UHGV virus genome: UHGV-0267411
Length of the DNA: 42,217 bases
Source: a virus
Reading direction: 5' to 3' (one strand)
Made by a program: the position numbers and the translations under genes. This document shows, piece after piece, positions 6,789 through 32,202 of this stretch. Within the stretch, counting starts at the first letter, position 1, and each line of letters starts with the position of its first letter. The notes beneath the pieces were generated by a model. The model made no database searches. It was not told where the DNA came from and saw only the letters and a program-made list of their open reading frames with translations.

Positions 6789-9383
6789 ATGGTTTATCAA
6801 AGACATTATTGGAATGATTATGACGAAAATAAAACAGAAACACAGAATATAGAATCTGGCGCGGTTGTTACTACGGAAAAATTAAATGAAATTGAGGCAG
6901 GAATAGTGTCAAATCAAATTGACATGGATCGAAAAAAAGCTGACAAAAGCTACGTTGATTCTATGCTTTCCTCAATTGCGCAAGGTGGTCCCAGAGAAAT
7001 TTTCTATTCACTGGACGCATTGAAGAGCAAGTATCCTACAGGATCTGAAGGAACATATCTTGTTTTCGATAGTTCTCTGACTGATGGTGCGCATTCTTAT
7101 ATTTGGGATAAAGCTGCTAGCAATTGGAAAGACCTTGGCATCTATCAAGCAATGGCTATTCCGGAAAAAGTTATACGTGAGATTAATTTAAATTCAGATT
7201 TTTCGAATGTTCTATTAACACAAGGAAAAAACCTATTAAAAAACACAACTTTTCAAAATGGAACCAATAGTTGGGCTAGCTCTTCAACTCCAAGTGCTAC
7301 ATTATCTGTTGATCAAAACCAACAAACACTTACCAGCACAGGTACTGGAACAAACGCTAATGTAATGTTTTATCAAAACTTGGACACTGTTGATGTAAAA
7401 AAAGATCATACTTATTACTTTTGTTCGCTTGGATATGTAACAAATAGTAATTGTGATGAGATCAGGGTAGATTTCTGCAACAATACATTTTCGTTTTTAA
7501 AACCAGCTGCTAATCAAATTTATCGGTTGCAAGGCATACAAAAATTAATCACAGAAACCTATCGCTCAATGAACACACGTCATATTTATGCAGATGCGAG
7601 CACTGCTTCTGGAAAGGCACTAGTGATTAGTAGACCGATCGTTGTAGACTTAACGGATATTTTTGGTAGTGGAAATGAGCCGACATTAGAAGAATGCACA
7701 TGGTTATTTGAAAACTATGCGGAGTATTTTGAAGAAGGGAAAGTGTTCTTTTCAGTGTCAGAAACAGTGACTAAAAAAATATTGGAGTCAACACAAAAAA
7801 TATCTGCTTTGAACGAAGGAGTGGATTTGTCAAAACTAGTCTTAAACAATCTATTTCCTAATGCAAGATTGAACAACTCTAGTTATTGGGTAACCACATC
7901 TGTTCCAGATACAATTATTTCTGCTTCAGACGGAGTTCTAAAACTAATCGGCAATGGATCGGCAAATACACAAAGAGCTTTCGTAAATTACCATTTAAAA
8001 GACGGCAATGCCTATTACTTAAGAATGATAGTTAGAACAAGAAGTGCGTGCCAAAAGATTAGAATTAGTCAGAATGCGACAGAGATAATGGCTATTGATA
8101 ATCCTGTAGTTGATCAATGGTATGAACTAAAAGTGTTATCCGACGAGTTATCGGAGAATAGTATTTATATTCGTGCTAACTATGATACAGCTGAAAGTGC
8201 CAACGGATCGATTATTGAAATGACAAAACCCATTATGATCGATTTAACAAATGATGTGACAAATATTCCAACAATGAGTCAGCTTGAAAATGTTTTTTCG
8301 TACACTGGTGATTGGTTTGCGACAAGTGCCGCAATTAGTAAGAACAAATACACAGTAGCGCTCGTTGAGTCTTTAGATATGAGGCAAGAAACCCAAAATG
8401 CAGCTGAACAGAGTTTGTTTTACAATACCATAAATTCGATTCCGGCTCATGATGGAAGCGAAGCGATTGATATAGAAGAACTCACGACGGATACCTTTTA
8501 TCCTATGTGGGATACTTTGATCAACAGTACGTCCTATCTAGAAAAAGTTATTTTAGGTAAAGACCAATCAAATACTTGGGATATTTGGCAAGTCAAAACG
8601 ATGCCAGTTGCGCCAAAGTACAAACTGCTGATGACTTGTAATGTTCACGGACATGGTCCGGGAGGAGATCCAAGGGATGTTGGTGTAGCATTATATTATT
8701 TCATTAAAGATTTAGTACAAAATACTATAAAAAGTCCACAGCTGGAATGGCTTTACAACAATGTTCAAATGATTTTTATCCCTGTAGCAAATCCGTCGGG
8801 ATTCAATGTGACTGGGCGTTACAACTCAAGAGGAGTAGATATCAATCGCAATTTTGATTACAACTTCCCAGAAAATCCAAGCGCTGTGTTTGGAACTGCC
8901 CCGTTTTCAGAAGTTGAAAGTCAGTATATAAGAGATATGGTTCTAGAAAATCTGGATGCTGATGGCTATGTAGATCTTCATTGTTTTATGAACGATCCTA
9001 TTTCTCTGCTATTTCCTGCATACTCTGGCGACAGAGTGGGGATTGGGTGGAAGACACTGAACGAAGTGGCGATGCACATGACGAAGAAATACGGCGGTTC
9101 TAGGTCAATTGATGTTACTGACACGCCAGCAACAATTCGTAAATGGGTAGAAAATGTAAATGGAATTGAAGCAATTACGCCTGAAGGAACAGTCTATATC
9201 GAAGGAGAGATTCCGCATAGCTCCCTAGGATTAACCAGACTAACTGAGTGGTATGGGAATAATATCTACCGATTTATTTATACTATTCCGTGGAATAAGG
9301 ACTATTTTGTCACTAAAAACGGTTCTAAATTTCGCCAAGTTATTGCGGATGATGGAACAATTAGCACATTATTAATCAACTAA
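6789..9383 (+). CDS. Baseplate/receptor-binding-like tail protein with BppU-like N-terminus and C-terminal M14-like zinc peptidase domain
   Basis: N-terminus 'YQRHYWNDYDE...TTEKLNEIEAGI' is typical of the upper-baseplate/tail-fibre proteins of Gram-positive siphophages. C-terminal region has 'GVDINRNF' (M14 DxNRN motif), 'VDLHCF' (third Zn ligand context) and an atypical 'NVHGHGPGGD' where HxxE is expected. Confidence 0.55.
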   Translation: MVYQRHYWNDYDENKTETQNIESGAVVTTEKLNEIEAGIVSNQIDMDRKKADKSYVDSMLSSIAQGGPREIFYSLDALKSKYPTGSEGTYLVFDSSLTDGAHSYIWDKAASNWKDLGIYQAMAIPEKVIREINLNSDFSNVLLTQGKNLLKNTTFQNGTNSWASSSTPSATLSVDQNQQTLTSTGTGTNANVMFYQNLDTVDVKKDHTYYFCSLGYVTNSNCDEIRVDFCNNTFSFLKPAANQIYRLQGIQKLITETYRSMNTRHIYADASTASGKALVISRPIVVDLTDIFGSGNEPTLEECTWLFENYAEYFEEGKVFFSVSETVTKKILESTQKISALNEGVDLSKLVLNNLFPNARLNNSSYWVTTSVPDTIISASDGVLKLIGNGSANTQRAFVNYHLKDGNAYYLRMIVRTRSACQKIRISQNATEIMAIDNPVVDQWYELKVLSDELSENSIYIRANYDTAESANGSIIEMTKPIMIDLTNDVTNIPTMSQLENVFSYTGDWFATSAAISKNKYTVALVESLDMRQETQNAAEQSLFYNTINSIPAHDGSEAIDIEELTTDTFYPMWDTLINSTSYLEKVILGKDQSNTWDIWQVKTMPVAPKYKLLMTCNVHGHGPGGDPRDVGVALYYFIKDLVQNTIKSPQLEWLYNNVQMIFIPVANPSGFNVTGRYNSRGVDINRNFDYNFPENPSAVFGTAPFSEVESQYIRDMVLENLDADGYVDLHCFMNDPISLLFPAYSGDRVGIGWKTLNEVAMHMTKKYGGSRSIDVTDTPATIRKWVENVNGIEAITPEGTVYIEGEIPHSSLGLTRLTEWYGNNIYRFIYTIPWNKDYFVTKNGSKFRQVIADDGTISTLLIN

Positions 9384-29522: not shown

Positions 29523-29936
29523 TTGAGTAAGAATGATTCATTAATCAATGAGCTAGATAGAAAGTTTGCGAACTACCATGCATATAACAAAGAGATTGCT
29601 ATTCGAAAAGAGGAGCTGAAGCTTCGAGAAGTCGATGAAAATATCGGTGGCGGACGAAGTAATATCATGAGCAATCCGATTGAGTCGCAAGTAATAAAAG
29701 AAATGTCTGATCCGTACATTATGAACCGAGAACTGTGGAAAAAGGCAGTCAAAGAAACTCTGAGCGATCAAAGTGCGGATATTAGAGTTTTGATTGAAAC
29801 CAAGTACTGGGGAGAAGATAGTTGGATGGATTGGAAATCATTTGGCGATAAACACGGTTATAGCAAGCCAACAATTTATCGGATTCGGCAAAAAGTATTA
29901 TTCGATTTTGGCAGAAGAATTGGTGAAATTAACTAA
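29523..29936 (+). CDS. ArpU-family late transcriptional regulator
   Basis: TTG start with RBS GGAGGG 7 nt upstream. 137 aa. C-terminal 'SKPTIYRIRQKVLFDF' is the sigma-region-4-like helix typical of the ArpU family. Last regulator before the packaging/structural module. Confidence 0.65.
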   Translation: MSKNDSLINELDRKFANYHAYNKEIAIRKEELKLREVDENIGGGRSNIMSNPIESQVIKEMSDPYIMNRELWKKAVKETLSDQSADIRVLIETKYWGEDSWMDWKSFGDKHGYSKPTIYRIRQKVLFDFGRRIGEIN

Positions 29937-30082
29937 TTTGAGACAAAAACGTATAGTTGTCTCACTGTCAATAGGGGTAAAATTGTATTATCAAGTATTG
30001 TCGTAAAGGCAATATAGCTTTTCCGCGGAAACGGAACAAGCGAGCGACCTAGTATCGTGTATAAAGCAACCTAAGCTAGGTA

Positions 30083-30394
30083 ATGGTTGCGATAGAAAGA
30101 CAGATAGAGAGGATGATTTTAATGTTATTACAGATTGATAAACTTTTAAAGAGTGATGTTGGAGAGGGAAAGGAAGCTGTTTTAAGAACAGATATCATTG
30201 AAGGAGTCGAACGAACGAATCGTATTGATGGTTTTTTGATGGTTCATTTTTATGACGATTCCGTTTATTCGTTTTCAGTTAATGAAAAAGATAGTTCTTT
30301 CACTATCGATTCTTCAGAAGAATTCAAGGATTACATTATCTCTCAAGTGTGGTTATTGAATGATGAAGGTAAGACACTTAGAAAATTAATTTAG
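30083..30394 (+). CDS. Hypothetical protein (103 aa, or 90 aa from ATG 30122)
   Basis: Candidate starts at 30083, 30113 and 30122 (GAGAGGA lies before the last). Followed by a strong hairpin. Confidence 0.4.
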   Translation: MVAIERQIERMILMLLQIDKLLKSDVGEGKEAVLRTDIIEGVERTNRIDGFLMVHFYDDSVYSFSVNEKDSSFTIDSSEEFKDYIISQVWLLNDEGKTLRKLI

Positions 30395-30404
30395 CAAAAT
30401 AAAA

Positions 30405-30468
30405 AGACAGCACAATTTTTTGAAAGAGGTGGATCATCTCATTTCATAATTCGCTAGTGCTGTCTTTT
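30405..30468 (+). terminator. Long-range perfect 12-bp inverted repeat (AAAAGACAGCAC ... GTGCTGTCTTTT) with ~40-nt loop, followed by T-run
   Basis: Read directly from the sequence. Ends the ArpU operon. The loop is unusually large for a simple terminator. Confidence 0.4.
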
Positions 30469-30471
30469 TGT

Positions 30472-30580
30472 GTCACTGTGGCGGAATAGGTAGACGCTTA
30501 AAAATAAGGCTGATACGTTCGGGGTTATCCCAAACGTTTTTAGATTCAGTCATGCAAGGTTCAAATCCTTGCCAGTGACG
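30472..30580 (+). tRNA. tRNA-like element (Leu-type D-arm, canonical T-arm, perfect 7-bp acceptor pairing) but ~109 nt with no canonical anticodon arm: pseudo-tRNA or tRNA with insertion
   Basis: GTCACTG-TG-GCGGAATAGGTAGACGC ... CAAGG-TTCAAAT-CCTTG-C-CAGTGAC. The internal 57 nt contain a TAAAAA/TTTTTA-closed hairpin instead of a 17-nt anticodon arm. Confidence 0.25.
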
Positions 30581-30690
30581 TAGGCAAAAGCCTCCTGATT
30601 GCAAGGGGTAAGTGCAAGTAGCCTAAACTGCATGCAGAGGGTCGCTCCCTCAAGACACAAGATAATACACAAAATAAGAACGTACGGAAG

Positions 30691-30772
30691 AGGCATCTTC
30701 AGTTGGTGTATAGTTTAAGGGAAAAACATCCGTCAGAATGCAGGAGTTGTCGGTTCGAGTCCGGCTATGCCA
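30691..30772 (+). tRNA. Second degenerate tRNA-like element (T-arm GTCGG-TTCGAGT-CCGGC; acceptor GGCAT/ATGCC)
   Basis: Canonical GGTTCGAGTCC T-arm. 5-bp GC-rich acceptor-like pairing 80 nt apart. D and anticodon arms not resolvable by eye. Confidence 0.2.
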
Positions 30773-30957
30773 ATAGGGTTTATAGTTATCCCATTAAAAC
30801 TTGGTGTTTCGCTACCGAAGGCGAACTAACTATGAAAGCGACCGAGGACTTAGTAGGGATGGTGGATAGGTAGCTAATAGCTGGAAATCCTATGTGTAGG
30901 TTGCTTTAATCAAAAAACTGAAAGAGCCTCTTAACAATGCTAATACGTTTCAGTCGT

Positions 30958-30995
30958 TTATTAGTCACTCATTGCGAGTGGCTTTTTATTTTGCA
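30958..30995 (+). terminator. Rho-independent terminator between the tRNA-like region and the next gene
   Basis: AGTCACTC-attgc-GAGTGGCT (8 bp, one wobble) followed by TTTTTATTTT. Confidence 0.5.
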
Positions 30996-31005
30996 GAAAA
31001 GCGAG

Positions 31006-32202
31006 GTGGCAGACATAAACTGGACGGAACAAGAAATTGATAGGCTCAAAGATTTAATCAATGAAGGTTATACCAATAAAGAAATAGCATTCATATTGTC
31101 AAACGAGTACGGAAGAGAGTTTACCAAGATTAGTGTAAAAAGCAAACGTCAACGATTGAACAAAGTAACGCCACCTCGCACCGTAGATGGTCAATCAATC
31201 AACGAAAACAAACGGTACAATATTGACGGCACCATTTCTCAAGCTGAATTCGATGTGAAGATGGCTTTCTACCAGAAGGATAGCAAAACGCCAGAAGACA
31301 TCCTCAAGTACAAAGGTTATGATCCAGAAGAGTGGGAAATATCTCAAGTAACCACCAATGAGTGGACAACCACTACAGCGGATATCCAGAAATGGAATCA
31401 GCAGTTGAAGTTTGTGGTGAAGCCAAAGCACAAGGCATTTAACGCATCTGCCTTCACCGAATCGATTGAGCCAGTAAAACTAACCGCAATCAAAACGGGT
31501 GACAGAAACTTATTCATCGGATTGGCTGATTGGCATTTCGGTATCACCAAACTAGAGGACTTACAGGATAAGCTAGCGAGAATGATTGAAGTTATCTCGA
31601 AAGGCTATAAGCAGATTGTTATTGGTCAGCTAGGAGATTTATTTCATAGCAGCCAAATCAAAAAGTCAGTCACGATGGCTGGCACACAATTAGATGATGT
31701 AGATATGGAAACAGCAATCAAAGATGCACGAGCGTTTTTTGATGTGTTGATTACTGAGTGTGTGAGACATTCGAAGCAAGTGACTGTTGAACATGCTGAA
31801 GGGAATCATAGTGGATCGATCGAGTATATGTTTCTCCTATACCTAGAAGCCAAGTATCCAGATATCAAAGTGAATTACCATAATAAGTACCGTCAAGCCT
31901 TCATGTTGGATAATGTGGCAATTATGATTACTCATGGGCAGTATGGCAAGCGGAAGGATTTGCCGATGTTGTTCGCTACTGAGTTCAGCGATATATGGAG
32001 TAAGGCAACGACACGGGAGATAATCACAGGACATTTCCACACACAACAGACGAACGACTATCAAGGTGTGATCCATCGTCAGTTAGGGACTATTAAGCCG
32101 AATGACAGCTACGAGATTGAGAACGGTTGGACGATGGGTAAGAAGGTGCTGCAGTTGTTTGAATATGATAGCGAAAGGTTGAGGGTGACTTATGACATTT
32201 AA
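31006..32202 (+). CDS. HTH-domain plus calcineurin-like metallophosphoesterase (Mre11/SbcD-like motifs) protein
   Basis: Start uncertain (GTG 31006 after the terminator; track start 30937 lies inside the hairpin). N-terminal 'WTEQEIDRLKDLINEGYTNKEIAFIL' is HTH-like. Phosphoesterase motifs 'DWH', 'GDLFHSS', 'GNHSG', 'HGQYG', 'GHFH'. Confidence 0.5.
   Translation: MADINWTEQEIDRLKDLINEGYTNKEIAFILSNEYGREFTKISVKSKRQRLNKVTPPRTVDGQSINENKRYNIDGTISQAEFDVKMAFYQKDSKTPEDILKYKGYDPEEWEISQVTTNEWTTTTADIQKWNQQLKFVVKPKHKAFNASAFTESIEPVKLTAIKTGDRNLFIGLADWHFGITKLEDLQDKLARMIEVISKGYKQIVIGQLGDLFHSSQIKKSVTMAGTQLDDVDMETAIKDARAFFDVLITECVRHSKQVTVEHAEGNHSGSIEYMFLLYLEAKYPDIKVNYHNKYRQAFMLDNVAIMITHGQYGKRKDLPMLFATEFSDIWSKATTREIITGHFHTQQTNDYQGVIHRQLGTIKPNDSYEIENGWTMGKKVLQLFEYDSERLRVTYDI

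Follow-up and report, generated by a model that had tools for sequence, protein, structure and literature searches.

The virus genome UHGV-0267411, a stretch of 42,217 nucleotides referred to here as the window, carries two RNA elements that derive from tRNAs and do not decode. Together with a series of structured modules, they fill positions 30401-30992 on the + strand, between a late activator gene and the packaging genes (Table 1). This region is probably a mosaic array of small structured RNAs that forms the leader of the late transcript and has its own terminator at its end. The first element keeps those parts to which a tRNA owes its L-shape and its ends: the acceptor stem, the D-arm (of tRNA-Leu type) and the T-arm. 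We put at about one in two the probability that tRNA-processing enzymes cut and stabilise the leader RNA array and that its cargo acts in trans, possibly as anti-defence decoys.

The array lies downstream of a gene for an ArpU-like activator (29523-29936), and the next gene begins with a GTG codon at 31006, 14 nt past the array terminator. A sequence-only reading had described a 540-bp structured non-coding region with degenerate tRNA-like elements. The structured region is real, but degenerate remnants are the wrong description of it. Among the three options offered at the time, a tRNA with an insertion comes nearest to element 1, and another structured RNA is the better term for the rest of the stretch.

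Table 1. Positions of the array features and of the upstream candidate promoter in the window
Feature	Positions	Strand	Description
Candidate late promoter region	29929-29993	+	Directly past the ArpU-like activator gene; putative function
Long-range inverted repeat	30401-30469	+	13-bp arms, 43-nt loop; precedes the first tRNA-like frame
Element 1, tRNA-Leu-derived frame	30472-30580	+	109 nt including base 73
Frame 5′ half	30472-30497	+	Acceptor strand GTCACTG, U8 G9, D-arm GCGGAATAGGTAGACGC with G18 G19
Cargo insert	30498-30553	+	56 nt, in place of anticodon and variable arms
Frame 3′ half	30554-30580	+	T-stem GCAAGG/CCTTGC, T-loop TTCAAAT, acceptor strand CAGTGAC, base 73
Module D	30581-30654	+	Conserved spacer RNA, common to L010, L023, L027 and L116
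Element 2 (tRNA-like element E)	30704-30773	+	Matched by Rfam tRNA and ARAGORN
Module F	30774-30793	+	Short hairpin region starting directly past the 3′ end of element E (TAGGGTTTATAGTTATCCCA)
Module I	30801-30830	+	One weak ToxI-like unit (TTGGTGTTTCGCTACCGAAGGCGAACTAAC); scores 19.1 bits with Rfam ToxI (E = 1.2, threshold 50)
Module H	30838-30904	+	Conserved ends GCGACCGAGG...GTGTAGGTTGC, variable interior
Module G	30918-30953	+	abiF-motif-like RNA, CUGAAA G AGC CUCUUAACAAU GCU AAUACG UUUCAG
Intrinsic terminator	30963-30992	+	AGTCACTCATTGCGAGTGGCT + TTTTATTTT; closes the array

When the window and 17 related loci were compared with Rfam 15 at gathering thresholds, the matches were to tRNA and to one phage tmRNA (related loci are cited here by L numbers). 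Scans at E values up to 10 covered positions 30200-31100, positions 990-1330 of L010 and six whole loci, and they added two matches of note, to abiF and ToxI, both below threshold. Weak matches to CDKN2B-AS, Arrc11, YrlA, snoRNA and other families were judged to reflect chance or the T-arm alone, and a Y-RNA-like reading was rejected. A family resembling the tRNA-shaped frame is absent from Rfam 15 and from the literature that was searchable here. Searches of GenBank phages with megablast and blastn matched the array only in part (EG-TP1 and phiEG37K), and none of the GenBank phage records matched carries an annotation for the frame.

Structurally, element 1 is a cloverleaf-like RNA whose anticodon arm has been replaced. 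Of the features noted from the sequence, the acceptor strands GTCACTG and CAGTGAC do pair perfectly over 7 bp, the D-arm GGCGGAATAGGTAGACGC and the T-loop are present, and an unconstrained fold of the element reaches -36.3 kcal/mol (z = -4.0), a value equalled by one of 200 shuffled sequences. The T-arm had been called canonical; it is present, but its stem has 6 bp rather than 5, and the sixth pair covaries from GC to AU with all cells paired. As had been proposed, there is no standard anticodon arm, and the 56-nt insert replaces positions 27-48. In this insert a single-stranded linker, UUAAAAAUAA, leads to the stem GGCUGA/UCAGUC, which closes around the inner hairpin ACGUU-C-GGG-GUUAU-CCC-A-AACGU. 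The pairing TAAAAA/TTTTTA had been taken for the closing stem, but GGCUGA/UCAGUC is likelier on the evidence of the minimum-free-energy fold and the layout of other insert classes, and TAAAAA/TTTTTA could at most be an alternative pairing or a pseudoknot. The same cargo insert occurs in L010, L023, L027 and L116.

Elements 1 and 2 both have a 7-bp acceptor stem, a D-arm and a T-arm with its T-loop, and both lack the anticodon arm with its 5-bp stem and 7-nt loop. Base 73 of element 1 is G in the window and A in 45 of 54 frame contexts. Base 74 is T (U) in the window and in 51 of these 54 contexts, and CCA is never encoded. The window copy of element 1 has no Rfam match up to E = 10, and the L012 homologue reaches 29.8 bits, with a tRNA threshold of 29. 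An intron in a decoding tRNA was considered and rejected, because the insert spans the whole interval from D-stem to T-stem and leaves no anticodon arm. A group I intron in a tRNA-Leu was likewise rejected: there is no Intron_gpI match up to E = 10 and no flanking anticodon stem, and such introns are expected to have about 200-300 nt, compared with frame inserts of 39-224 nt that are mutually unrelated.

More than 100 loci from phages, prophages and metagenomes contain the frame, whose structure and family are well supported. In IMG/VR, 37 contigs contain the 24-mer CACTGTGGCGGAATAGGTAGACGC exactly, and a variant with one N is found in 29 metagenome contigs. The 5′ half of the frame is identical in 37 viral contigs, with pairs 1:72 and 2:71 covarying, and 84 viral DNA stretches match a pattern written for its 3′ half. 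Cultured phages with an unannotated frame include EFP01, EfV12-phi1, phiFL2A/B, IME197 and EG-TP1. These members were collected by exact and degenerate pattern scans rather than with a covariance model, because an insert of 39-224 nt at the multiloop junction would split or penalise matches, and the sample is therefore biased towards conserved frames. A scan of single-species genomes could not map the host range, because hits to the 24-mer were confined to Lacticaseibacillus pantheris and Schleiferilactobacillus perolens.

Among 20 distinct frames, 98.8% of the cells in the alignment are paired and six pairs have changed on both sides, a result matched by none of 500 shuffles. Slid controls of the same alignment are 27-46% paired. 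At least 23 unrelated inserts of 39-224 nt occupy one position between the D-stem and the T-stem, and inserts of a single class show compensatory changes within their own hairpins. An 'empty' form of the frame with 52 nt also exists and lacks G18 G19. In independent contigs, frames often start 0-3 nt past canonical tRNA-Tyr, tRNA-Ser or tRNA-Gln genes or a phage tmRNA, and frames are also present inside the tRNA islands of lytic phages of 105-155 kb. The orientation is always that of the flanking genes and adjacent tRNAs. A search for abiF-type loops inside the cargo inserts found none, and such loops are confined to module G.

The closest parallel to this arrangement is an artificial one. In the 'tRNA scaffold' reportedly designed by Ponchon and Dardel for recombinant RNA expression, the anticodon arm is said to be exchanged for a structured RNA. 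The resulting chimera is trimmed by tRNA-processing enzymes and protected from nucleases by its tRNA fold. The phage frame likewise keeps the acceptor stem, D-arm and T-arm and has its anticodon arm replaced, but it is apparently natural, accommodates at least 23 cargos, and has a 5′ single-stranded linker and a 6-bp T-stem. Non-decoding tRNA-like units, viral or part of a long RNA, also recruit RNase P and RNase Z to release neighbouring non-coding RNAs in the tRNA-miRNA encoded RNAs of murine gammaherpesvirus-68 and in MALAT1-mascRNA. Those units, in contrast, are eukaryotic, involve RNA polymerase III or nuclear processing, and have their cargo beside the unit.

Like the frame, tmRNA has a long foreign domain at the position of the anticodon arm, joined to an acceptor/T-arm domain of tRNA type, and in L079 a frame begins 1 nt past a phage tmRNA. 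However, the frame has C3-G70 rather than the G3:U70 alanine identity pair, has neither a tag reading frame nor conserved pseudoknots, and has as its D-arm a true Leu-type stem-loop. ARAGORN and the Rfam model RF00023 call no tmRNA in the window, although both detect the true tmRNA in L079, and a tmRNA assignment was rejected. ROOL and GOLLD are large structured phage and prophage RNAs of unknown function from Lactobacillales and other bacteria that are often found beside tRNAs, and GOLLD sometimes carries tRNAs in a variable linker (PMC12286853, PMC5737381). Neither family (RF03087, RF01998) has a gathering-threshold match in the window and 17 related loci, or any match up to E = 10 in 30200-31100. 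The array also differs from both in being composed of small separable modules and not of one fold of 600-800 nt.

Element 2 was likewise noticed from the sequence, by its motif GGTTCGAGTCC, and two of the suggested searches call it: Rfam as a tRNA (RF00005) with 38.9 bits (threshold 29) and ARAGORN as tRNA-???. The prospect that no covariance model would match the region can be set aside, since element 2 and the L012 homologue of element 1 both exceed the Rfam tRNA threshold. Element 2 has the acceptor stem TGGTGTA/TATGCCA, a D-arm, the T-arm GTCGG-TTCGAGT-CCGGC and A at base 73. Its anticodon loop has 6 nt, CAGAAU, and ARAGORN reports a 2-base 'anticodon'. Across the E-family alignment, only the acceptor stem, the T-arm and part of the D-stem are kept, with compensatory changes in 9 of 15 pairs, and a consensus anticodon arm is absent. 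The member in L023 has hardly more than the acceptor stem and T-arm.

The remaining modules are free-standing. The hairpin GAGGG-tcgct-CCCTC, picked out earlier, lies at 30637-30651 at the end of module D and recurs in other phages, where compensatory variants such as GAAGG/CCTTC and GGAGG/CCTCC are found; in many loci it is located just upstream of an E-type unit. The sequence CTGCATGCAG, which had been listed as a separate stem, is a short palindrome within module D, and no comparative support for it was found. Module F is present in phiEG37K as well, and its equivalents in other phages are the covarying hairpins GTAGC/GCTAC and AGTGG/CCACT. In an alignment of eight copies of module H, the ends are kept, the interiors are unrelated, and the closing stem has no compensatory changes. 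A third D-arm-like motif, GGTGGATAGGTAGC, falls within this variable interior, where only the ends AGCAACCGAGG...CGTGTAGGTTGCTT are conserved. It has no acceptor or T-arm alongside; the resemblance is due to chance, and the motif is not tRNA-derived. The terminator that closes the array is kept in at least 11 loci and in phiEG37K.

Module G resembles the abiF motif (RF03085), of which RCd22 is a member, in its nested stems of 6 and 3 bp, its 11-nt loop CUCUYAACRAU, its 6-nt 3′ bulge and the terminator just downstream. The match in the window is partial and scores 20.0 bits against a threshold of 37, and the copy in L010 gives a full-length match of 26.2 bits, still below that threshold. Six phage copies aligned with the Rfam consensus have 98.4% of cells paired and compensatory changes in seven of nine pairs, and the window sequence fits every pair of the abiF structure. 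Module G differs from RCd22 in scoring below threshold, in being a single copy where RCd22 has two, and in having no abiF gene next to it. The downstream 398-aa gene was rejected as an AbiF partner: it is a phrog_704 DNA repair exonuclease without Pfam or PADLOC match. Scans of 19 window ORFs with Pfam, PHROGs or PADLOC yielded no Abi_2, ToxN or other PADLOC protein.

Module I also has copies in L027 and L035. In the L027 copy, 16 of 21 bases match the Pectobacterium ToxI printed in PMC5772629, and this resemblance, which covariation does not support, makes a relationship to ToxI a lead only. A full ToxI (RF02519) was rejected, since there is a single unit rather than tandem repeats of 34-36 nt and no ToxN-like match among the window ORFs scanned. 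As a functional model for modules G and I we propose pseudo-ToxI of phage PhiTE (PMC3475682), in which an orphan phage copy of a host antitoxin RNA blocks abortive infection. Pseudo-ToxI, by comparison, is a tandem repeat and is genetically proven, whereas module I is single and weak (19 bits).

Taken at the odds given above, the preferred reading supposes that the array would be transcribed from the late promoter and that host tRNA-maturation enzymes would recognise both tRNA-like units and excise them from the array, with RNase P cleaving on the 5′ side and RNase Z past base 73, where U is the next base; CCA would then be added. The excised RNAs would be made stable by these host enzymes, and the cargo inserts and free-standing modules would then act in trans. 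The sequence features expected of RNase P, RNase Z and CCA-adding enzyme substrates are present, namely a coaxial acceptor/T-arm stack of 13 bp (element 1) or 12 bp (element 2) with its T-loop, and an unpaired base 73 followed by U74 with no encoded CCA. The conserved parts correspond to those that processing enzymes need: in the E family these are only the acceptor and T-arms, and the frame contexts mostly have U74 and never an encoded CCA. However, these three enzymes could be hindered in recognising the frame by its stack of 13 bp in place of 12, and by G at position 55 of the T-loop, which most members of the frame family have. The empty frames also count against a scaffold, having no obvious use if the frame is a scaffold only.

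Published work on phiFL2A bears on the processing step. In this phage, ArpU binds repeats immediately past arpU that are required for terS expression, and a 5′-RACE end at a G 118 bp upstream of terS was published as the transcription start (PMC3753634). This G, position 1724 of L097, falls 2-3 nt past the 3′ end of the E unit there (1648/9-1721/2). A GTAGC/GCTAC hairpin has its base at this point, and the repeats are some 640 nt away. If the preferred reading holds, the late 'transcription start' of phiFL2A would be a tRNA-type processing site, and the true start would be about 600 nt upstream. If the mapped end is a true transcription start, as published, it may instead count against processing.

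In the window, the region directly past the activator gene contains a sigma-70-like match, TTAACT-17-TATAGT, at 29929-29957, which is the sole promoter-like match on the + strand in 29900-31300. No such match occurs inside the array; the only matches adjoin the activator gene. A conserved box, AATAGGGGTAAAATTGTATTATCA, follows at 29970-29993 and is kept directly upstream of the array in other Enterococcus-phage loci, such as L028 with caataggggtaaaatagtattatcag. Between the putative promoter and the frames there are hairpins that resemble terminators (30401-30469 in the window and 1221-1235 in L097), and the preferred reading has to assume transcription through them, which counts against it.

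An anti-defence role for the cargo is speculative. The module make-up varies between neighbours that are otherwise 90-98% identical, and mosaic variation of this kind is typical of accessory loci of the arms-race type. The abiF-motif RNA RCd22 neutralises the AbiF toxin through direct binding (PMC12373285), and pseudo-ToxI provides a precedent for a phage-encoded mimic of an RNA antitoxin (PMC3475682). Plausibly, module G would mimic such an RNA antitoxin and hold a host abortive-infection toxin off. Late expression is not an obvious timing for counter-defence, which counts against decoys, and so do the scores of the abiF-like and ToxI-like matches, both below threshold. A bolder extension, which we offer tentatively and consider less likely than not, is that a natural tRNA scaffold serves as a cassette system in Lactobacillales phages and in relatives from soil and freshwater metagenomes. 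Host tRNA enzymes would mature and protect a fixed frame of tRNA-Leu origin. The cassettes would hold interchangeable RNA aptamers or decoys and, with orphan antitoxin mimics, would make up an RNA-only counter-defence island in the late-operon leader, the frame halves doubling as recombination points for cargo swaps.

The alternative that survives best, though it is unlikely, is a leader that acts in cis, governing terminator read-through into the late genes by attenuation or processive antitermination, with the tRNA-like folds forming part of a switch and ArpU acting somewhat like lambda Q. The array lies between the DNA site of the activator and the first late gene, has a terminator 14 nt before that gene, and has a second terminator-like structure at its start. 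Premature termination upstream of abiF gives RCd22 a cis action as well (PMC12373285), and phiEG37K, which has none of the tRNA-like units, retains module F, the terminator and the upstream repeat. However, frames are also found inside the tRNA islands of large lytic phages or directly past tRNAs, far from late-operon leaders. The content of the leader is freely shuffled among close relatives, which is hard to fit to a single folding switch, and hypervariable cargo has no role in a cis-acting leader.

Somewhat less probable still is a chargeable mimic of tRNA-Leu that is leucylated by, or sequesters, the host leucyl-tRNA synthetase, so that leucine is passed to a non-ribosomal acceptor, or charging or stringent signalling is perturbed. 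Bacterial leucine identity elements are kept in the frame family (A73 in the 45 contexts counted above, U8, A14, G18 G19, U54:A58 and C56), and the conservation of the D-arm goes far beyond the needs of RNase P or RNase Z. Against this reading, most members have G55, and the G18:U55 contact has been reported as important for leucylation. Base 73 of the window copy is G instead of A, an acceptor/T stack of 13 bp departs from the standard, G18 G19 are missing from the empty frames, and the neighbourhood encodes no Leu-tRNA-using partner enzyme. Bases 55 and 73 combine as U55 with G73 in the window and as G55 with A73 in most relatives, and L010 and L035 have both A73 and U55.

We consider it very improbable that the frame halves and palindromes function as DNA and not as RNA, either as recombination linkers through which modules are exchanged or as a signal for packaging (pac/cos) or replication. 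The site immediately precedes the packaging genes, mosaic-block junctions coincide with conserved elements, and the GenBank record of EG-TP1 begins 54 nt past its frame. Yet G-U wobble is tolerated only when the + strand is read (GU in pairs 1:72, 29:43 and 30:42), constraints on T-loop and D-loop sequence would be meaningless for DNA, and the orientation always matches that of the flanking genes and adjacent tRNAs. A role as recombination linker could nonetheless exist alongside an RNA function.

Least probable of all is the leading idea of the sequence-only reading, that the region is an eroding remnant of a phage tRNA cluster without present function, and this has already been largely refuted by the covariation of the frame, the inserts and the E family. 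The tRNA ancestry of both units is clear from a Leu-type D-arm and from T-arms, neither unit can decode, genuine tRNAs occupy the equivalent place in related phages (the L007 tRNA-like unit, 50.6 bits in L037; L043, 58.8 bits), and phiEG37K has no tRNA-like units altogether. However, pseudogenes would have no reason to keep a frame of 26 + 27 nt near-invariant while flanks and insert are replaced, nor would decay explain compensated helices, at least 23 different structured inserts, or a boundary syntax of hairpin, unit and hairpin that is kept, unlike in pseudogenes. For the same reason, namely a near-invariant frame with compensated helices amid unrelated flanks and inserts, the description of the region as a degraded intergenic spacer is not supported.

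If the preferred reading is true, a new class is added to the short list of tRNA-derived non-decoding RNAs, and phages invented the laboratory 'tRNA scaffold' trick first. The array gives testable content to part of the poorly understood non-coding phage 'tRNA islands', and it describes what is contained in the unannotated 'gaps' of 400-900 nt before terS in many genomes of Enterococcus phages for phage therapy. It also draws attention to counter-defence by RNA against toxins of the AbiF type, the RNA antitoxin of which was not described until 2025. A processing site at the phiFL2A start would bear on how regulators of the ArpU/RinA type work. In addition, the cargo inserts are a ready library of small, stable, naturally selected RNA folds.

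The inverted repeat that precedes element 1 had been described with arms of 12 bp and a loop of 40 nt. It is present (-25.4 kcal/mol, z = -6.0) but its arms, at 30401-30413 and 30457-30469, have 13 bp and enclose 43 nt, with an inner hairpin, GAGGTGGATCATCTC, at 30426-30440. The same layout, in three sequence types, precedes the frame in other phages, and the repeat may be the terminator of the upstream ORF or a 5′ structure. As a minor observation, sequences resembling an anti-Shine-Dalgarno element occur within this repeat.

Element 1, which the sequence-only reading had described as tRNA-like, is a real unit of this kind with an acceptor stem, a D-arm and a T-arm, although its T-stem has 6 pairs rather than 5. 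Free folding yields a four-way, cloverleaf-like structure (-36.3 kcal/mol, z = -4.0). A 24-mer covering the acceptor strand and D-arm occurs without mismatch in 37 IMG/VR contigs and is present also in phage EG-TP1, the 3'-half pattern GGTGCAAATCC-N4-CAGTGA is matched in 84 stretches of viral DNA, and the 5' pattern with one position set to N is matched in 29 metagenome contigs, with soil and freshwater apparently among them. Both halves of this frame are almost invariant across all matching loci, a conservation inflated within the pattern regions by the gathering of the sample with exact patterns; the covariation lies mostly outside these regions. The sequence between the D-stem and T-stem is unrelated between phage groups, and at least 23 insert classes are present with lengths from 39 to 224 nt. 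Cultured phages with the frame include EFP01 and EfV12-phi1 (Schiekvirus, ~150 kb), phiFL2A/B and IME197, whose records have no annotation at its position. No match to the family was found in Rfam 15, and full-text literature searches gave no description of it.

Features of the window array, its surroundings and the corresponding phiFL2A region (locus L097)
Feature	Position	Remarks
ArpU-like late activator	29523-29936	phrog_36/248
Sigma-70-like promoter match	29929-29957	end of activator gene
Putative late promoter box	29970-29993	after the promoter match
103-aa ORF	30083-30394	phrog_9473, no assigned function; between the box and the array
Inverted repeat arms	30401-30413, 30457-30469	
Element 1	30472-30580	
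Element 1 acceptor stem		GTCACTG/CAGTGAC
Element 1 junction bases		U8 G9, after acceptor strand
Element 1 D-arm		GCGGAATAGGTAGACGC; type usual in bacterial tRNA-Leu
Element 1 insert		56 nt
Element 1 T-arm		GCAAGG-TTCAAAT-CCTTGC
Element 1 base 73		G
Element 2	30704-30773	
Module I	30801-30830	weak ToxI-like single unit (GGTGTTTCGCTACC...GCGAAC); Rfam ToxI 19.1 bits, E = 1.2
Module H	30838-30904	conserved ends AGCAACCGAGG...CGUGUAGGUUGCUU or AGCAACCGAGG...CGTGTAGGTTGCTT; interiors unrelated between loci
Module G	30918-30953	abiF-motif-like RNA, directly ahead of array terminator
Array terminator	30963-30992	
'DNA repair exonuclease', 398 aa	31006-32202	phrog_704; GTG start 31006; first gene past array, before terS
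terS	32601	Terminase_2
terL	33073	
Portal gene	34367	
phiFL2A ArpU repeats	L097 1050-1085	TTGGCGG, three copies
phiFL2A sole promoter-like match	L097 1081-1108	after repeats
phiFL2A tRNA-like E unit	L097 1648-1722	ARAGORN
phiFL2A terS ATG	L097 1842	places mapped G at 1724

Covariation was assessed in 20 distinct frames aligned with their inserts taken out. Standard pairs fill 98.8% of the cells, six of the 16 frame pairs have changed on both sides, and none of 500 shuffles reaches any of the frame pairing measures; a control with the 3' partners slid gives 27-46% pairing. All cells of the six-pair T-stem are paired and four of its pairs are compensatory, with the outermost changing from G-C to A-U in one related locus (L021). 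Additional acceptor variants (TGCACTG/CAGTGCA and GACACTG/CAGTGTC) are present in the metagenome set. Internal hairpins also carry compensatory changes within single insert classes, as in the closing stems of L032 and L091 (UCCAAC/GUUGGA to UCUAAC/GUUAGA), and L012 and L045 provide a second example. Judged by these substitution patterns, the frame is selected as RNA. We conclude that the frame family is a tRNA-derived non-decoding RNA; support is good for the family as well as for its structure.

Inserts follow a common layout in which the D-arm is followed by a single-stranded linker of 3-12 nt, a closing stem of 6-9 bp with a complex interior, 2-3 nt (usually AU) and the T-arm. Certain classes have a linker or 3' tail with complementarity to an internal loop, such as GAUAAUU with AAUUAUC in L004, and pseudoknots are therefore possible. 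In the window the complementary sequences are UAAAAA and UUUUUA, which the sequence-only reading had seen as a pairing that closes the insert hairpin. The ~250-nt cargo of L015 and L104 holds two more T-arm-like hairpins (GGTTCGATTCC), so that tRNA-like elements are nested in a tRNA-like frame. Second frames occur in the same array at L023 (~7835-8040) and L035 (~1170-1330); both share the acceptor stem GTCACTG/CAGTGAC but differ in their inner arms, with a hairpin GCGGA-GGA-TCCGC and with GAGTGG-GGCAGTA-CCACTC where the T-arm would be. An 'empty' frame of 52-54 nt (GTCACTGTGGTGGAATATAGACCAT-ACAAGGTGCAAATCCTTGCCAGTGAC-A), with a shorter D-hairpin that lacks G18 G19, is found at ~39 loci, apparently E. 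faecalis-type prophages and including cultured phiFL2A. Examples are L043, L046, L047, L049, L057, L058, L067, L074, L088 and L097, and a conserved, apparently structured stretch of ~200 nt (gtgacacaaatagttgctagggatgcag...ttgtttttgctggtgtttgattgatt) precedes empty frames.

Among natural RNAs the family comes closest to tmRNA, to viral tRNA-like processing signals and to the ROOL and GOLLD RNAs of phage tRNA islands; in function, its closest analogue is a construct made by engineering. In the laboratory tRNA scaffold, a cargo occupies the anticodon-arm position and the tRNA body provides defined ends and nuclease resistance. Because the frame has the same design, with cargo replacing the anticodon arm, we read it as a putative carrier whose inserts would be the active parts.

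A second tRNA-like element proposed from the sequence was confirmed (Rfam tRNA model, 38.9 bits), and ARAGORN reports it as a tRNA without an assigned identity and with a 6-nt anticodon loop. The acceptor stem (UGGYRUR...), the T-arm and A at base 73, with UAGG or UAAG next to it, are common to its 13 distinct relatives (E units). The units differ in what lies between these ends, from near-canonical tRNAs down to a 45-nt unit in L023 with an acceptor stem, a T-arm and little else. The consensus fold of these relatives is limited to the acceptor stem and T arm together with part of the D stem (nine of 15 pairs compensatory), and no consensus anticodon arm was found in their alignment. Among near-identical prophages the anticodon loop is UUUUUAA, UUUUCAA or 8 nt long, and the window lineage has a 6-nt CAGAAU or CAGAAA. 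Such variation is seen in L005, L006, L043, L054, L063 and their relatives with the remainder of the unit constant, which suggests relaxed or diversifying selection on the loop.

In both unit types the conserved part is an acceptor/T-arm stack that has a T-loop and leaves base 73 unpaired. CCA is not encoded, and U occupies base 74 in 51 of the 54 frame contexts; Bacillus subtilis RNase Z acts on CCA-less precursors and favours U at position 74. Frames begin 0-3 nt past canonical tRNA-Tyr (L015, L104, L115), tRNA-Ser (L118) and tRNA-Gln (L119), and others lie within tRNA islands of 105-155 kb phages (EFP01, L076 and L079). Together, these features point to tRNA-maturation enzymes, and a model of processing by them is moderately supported. 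The tRNA-island phages with frames also have real tRNA-Leu genes, and the frame is thus no substitute for tRNA-Leu. In the 105-kb phage contig L079, a tmRNA (2336-2889, 144.5 bits, tag peptide AKNEELLAVA) is followed ~1 nt past its 3' end by a cargo-bearing frame, both within a 9-tRNA island.

No sigma-70-like promoter match was found inside the array, and the sole + strand match in 29900-31300 is that at the end of the activator gene. The box that follows it is placed directly ahead of the array in other phages. In phiFL2A, ArpU has its binding site in direct repeats that lie directly distal to arpU; these repeats are needed for terS expression and sufficient for its specificity (Quiles-Puchalt et al., PMC3753634). 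5' RACE gave one end, at a G located 118 bp before the terS ATG, which was published as the late transcription start, and the protocol as described does not tell primary and processed ends apart (PMC3753634). This G lies ~640 nt from the ArpU binding site, 2-3 nt past base 73 of the E unit and at the base of a GTAGC/GCTAC hairpin. By this reading, phiFL2A transcription would start beside the ArpU repeats, and the published end would be the hairpin-protected product of an RNase Z-type cut after the tRNA-like unit. The published start is probably a processing site, given this arrangement. ArpU might act at a far-upstream promoter with read-through of two terminator-like structures, resembling lambda Q.

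About a dozen Enterococcus-phage loci share an upstream inverted repeat, of three sequence types, and an identical terminator, between which the same modules occur in combinations that differ from locus to locus. Every array is preceded by such a repeat of 12-13 bp with a 43-55-nt loop (types a, b and c in L007-L040). The window repeat noted earlier is present (z = -6.0), with arms of 13 bp rather than the 12 bp claimed. In the loop, a Shine-Dalgarno-like GAGGTG pairs with CACCTC/CCTC, with a U-run after it, and one repeat type has a bare ACCTCCTTTT that resembles the 16S rRNA 3' end. This repeat could be the terminator of the preceding gene, a 5' stabiliser or something else.

Module H, with further copies in L010, L012, L027, L032, L035, L108 and L111, matched no Rfam family and is a second kind of 'frame'. 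The supposed third D-arm (GGTGGATAGGTAGC) sits in its variable interior and is not tRNA-related. Units of the module I type are also present in the L027 and L035 arrays, and that of L027 agrees with a Pectobacterium ToxI sequence (PMC5772629) at 16 of 21 bases. No repeats, toxN gene or covariation were found for module I, and its apparent likeness to ToxI is a lead only. Module G is the sole module with a known relative, having exactly the architecture of the Rfam abiF motif; the window copy gives only a partial match (20 bits), and the L010 copy aligns to the full model at 26.2 bits versus a threshold of 37. All nine pairs persist in the window copy, five of whose six outer pairs differ on both sides from other phage copies.

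The abiF-motif RNA RCd22, from a C. difficile prophage, neutralises the AbiF toxin by binding to it, much as type III antitoxins do (PMC12373285). Among the window ORFs that were scanned, none encodes an AbiF-like or ToxN-like protein, and module G is therefore an orphan motif. Phage PhiTE disarms a host Abi system with pseudo-ToxI, an orphan antitoxin RNA (PMC3475682), and an orphan of this kind could let a phage do likewise. By this analogy, module G is a candidate RNA antitoxin mimic, and a counter-defence role of the array is speculative. Fast module shuffling among close relatives fits an arms-race locus, and expression of the array seems to be late.

Rival readings (ALTERNATIVES) include an attractive one in which the frame is a leucine-accepting tRNA mimic. 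The frame keeps A73, U8, A14, G18 G19, U54:A58 and C56, and E. coli LeuRS charges tRNA-Leu variants without the anticodon and variable arms (PMC9976931); however, position 55 is G in most members and base 73 is G in the window copy. A regulatory component is plausible, since RCd22 acts in cis and two terminator-like structures are present, although a purely cis-regulatory leader leaves the frames inside tRNA islands unexplained. The units may also serve at the DNA level as recombination linkers, which is compatible with an RNA function but does not account for the G-U-tolerant, strand-specific pairing. Decay of tRNA genes into pseudogenes, an option of the sequence-only reading, is contradicted by the conservation and covariation of the frame.

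The window phage is a temperate siphophage of the Enterococcus gallinarum type, and phiEG37K has 93% identity to the flanks of its array. The gap between activator and exonuclease genes in phiEG37K is only 224 nt and holds no tRNA-like unit, and the array is therefore accessory. In the window, ~610 nt without a credible ORF separate the 103-aa ORF from the exonuclease gene. This ORF is an insertion relative to other arrays, since most of them lack it; it is present in L035 and L039. The exonuclease gene is common to phiEG37K. No Pfam match was found for its 398-aa product, in which metallophosphoesterase-like motifs (DWH, GDLFH, GNHSG and GHFH) and a helix-turn-helix-like N-terminal segment can be seen by eye.
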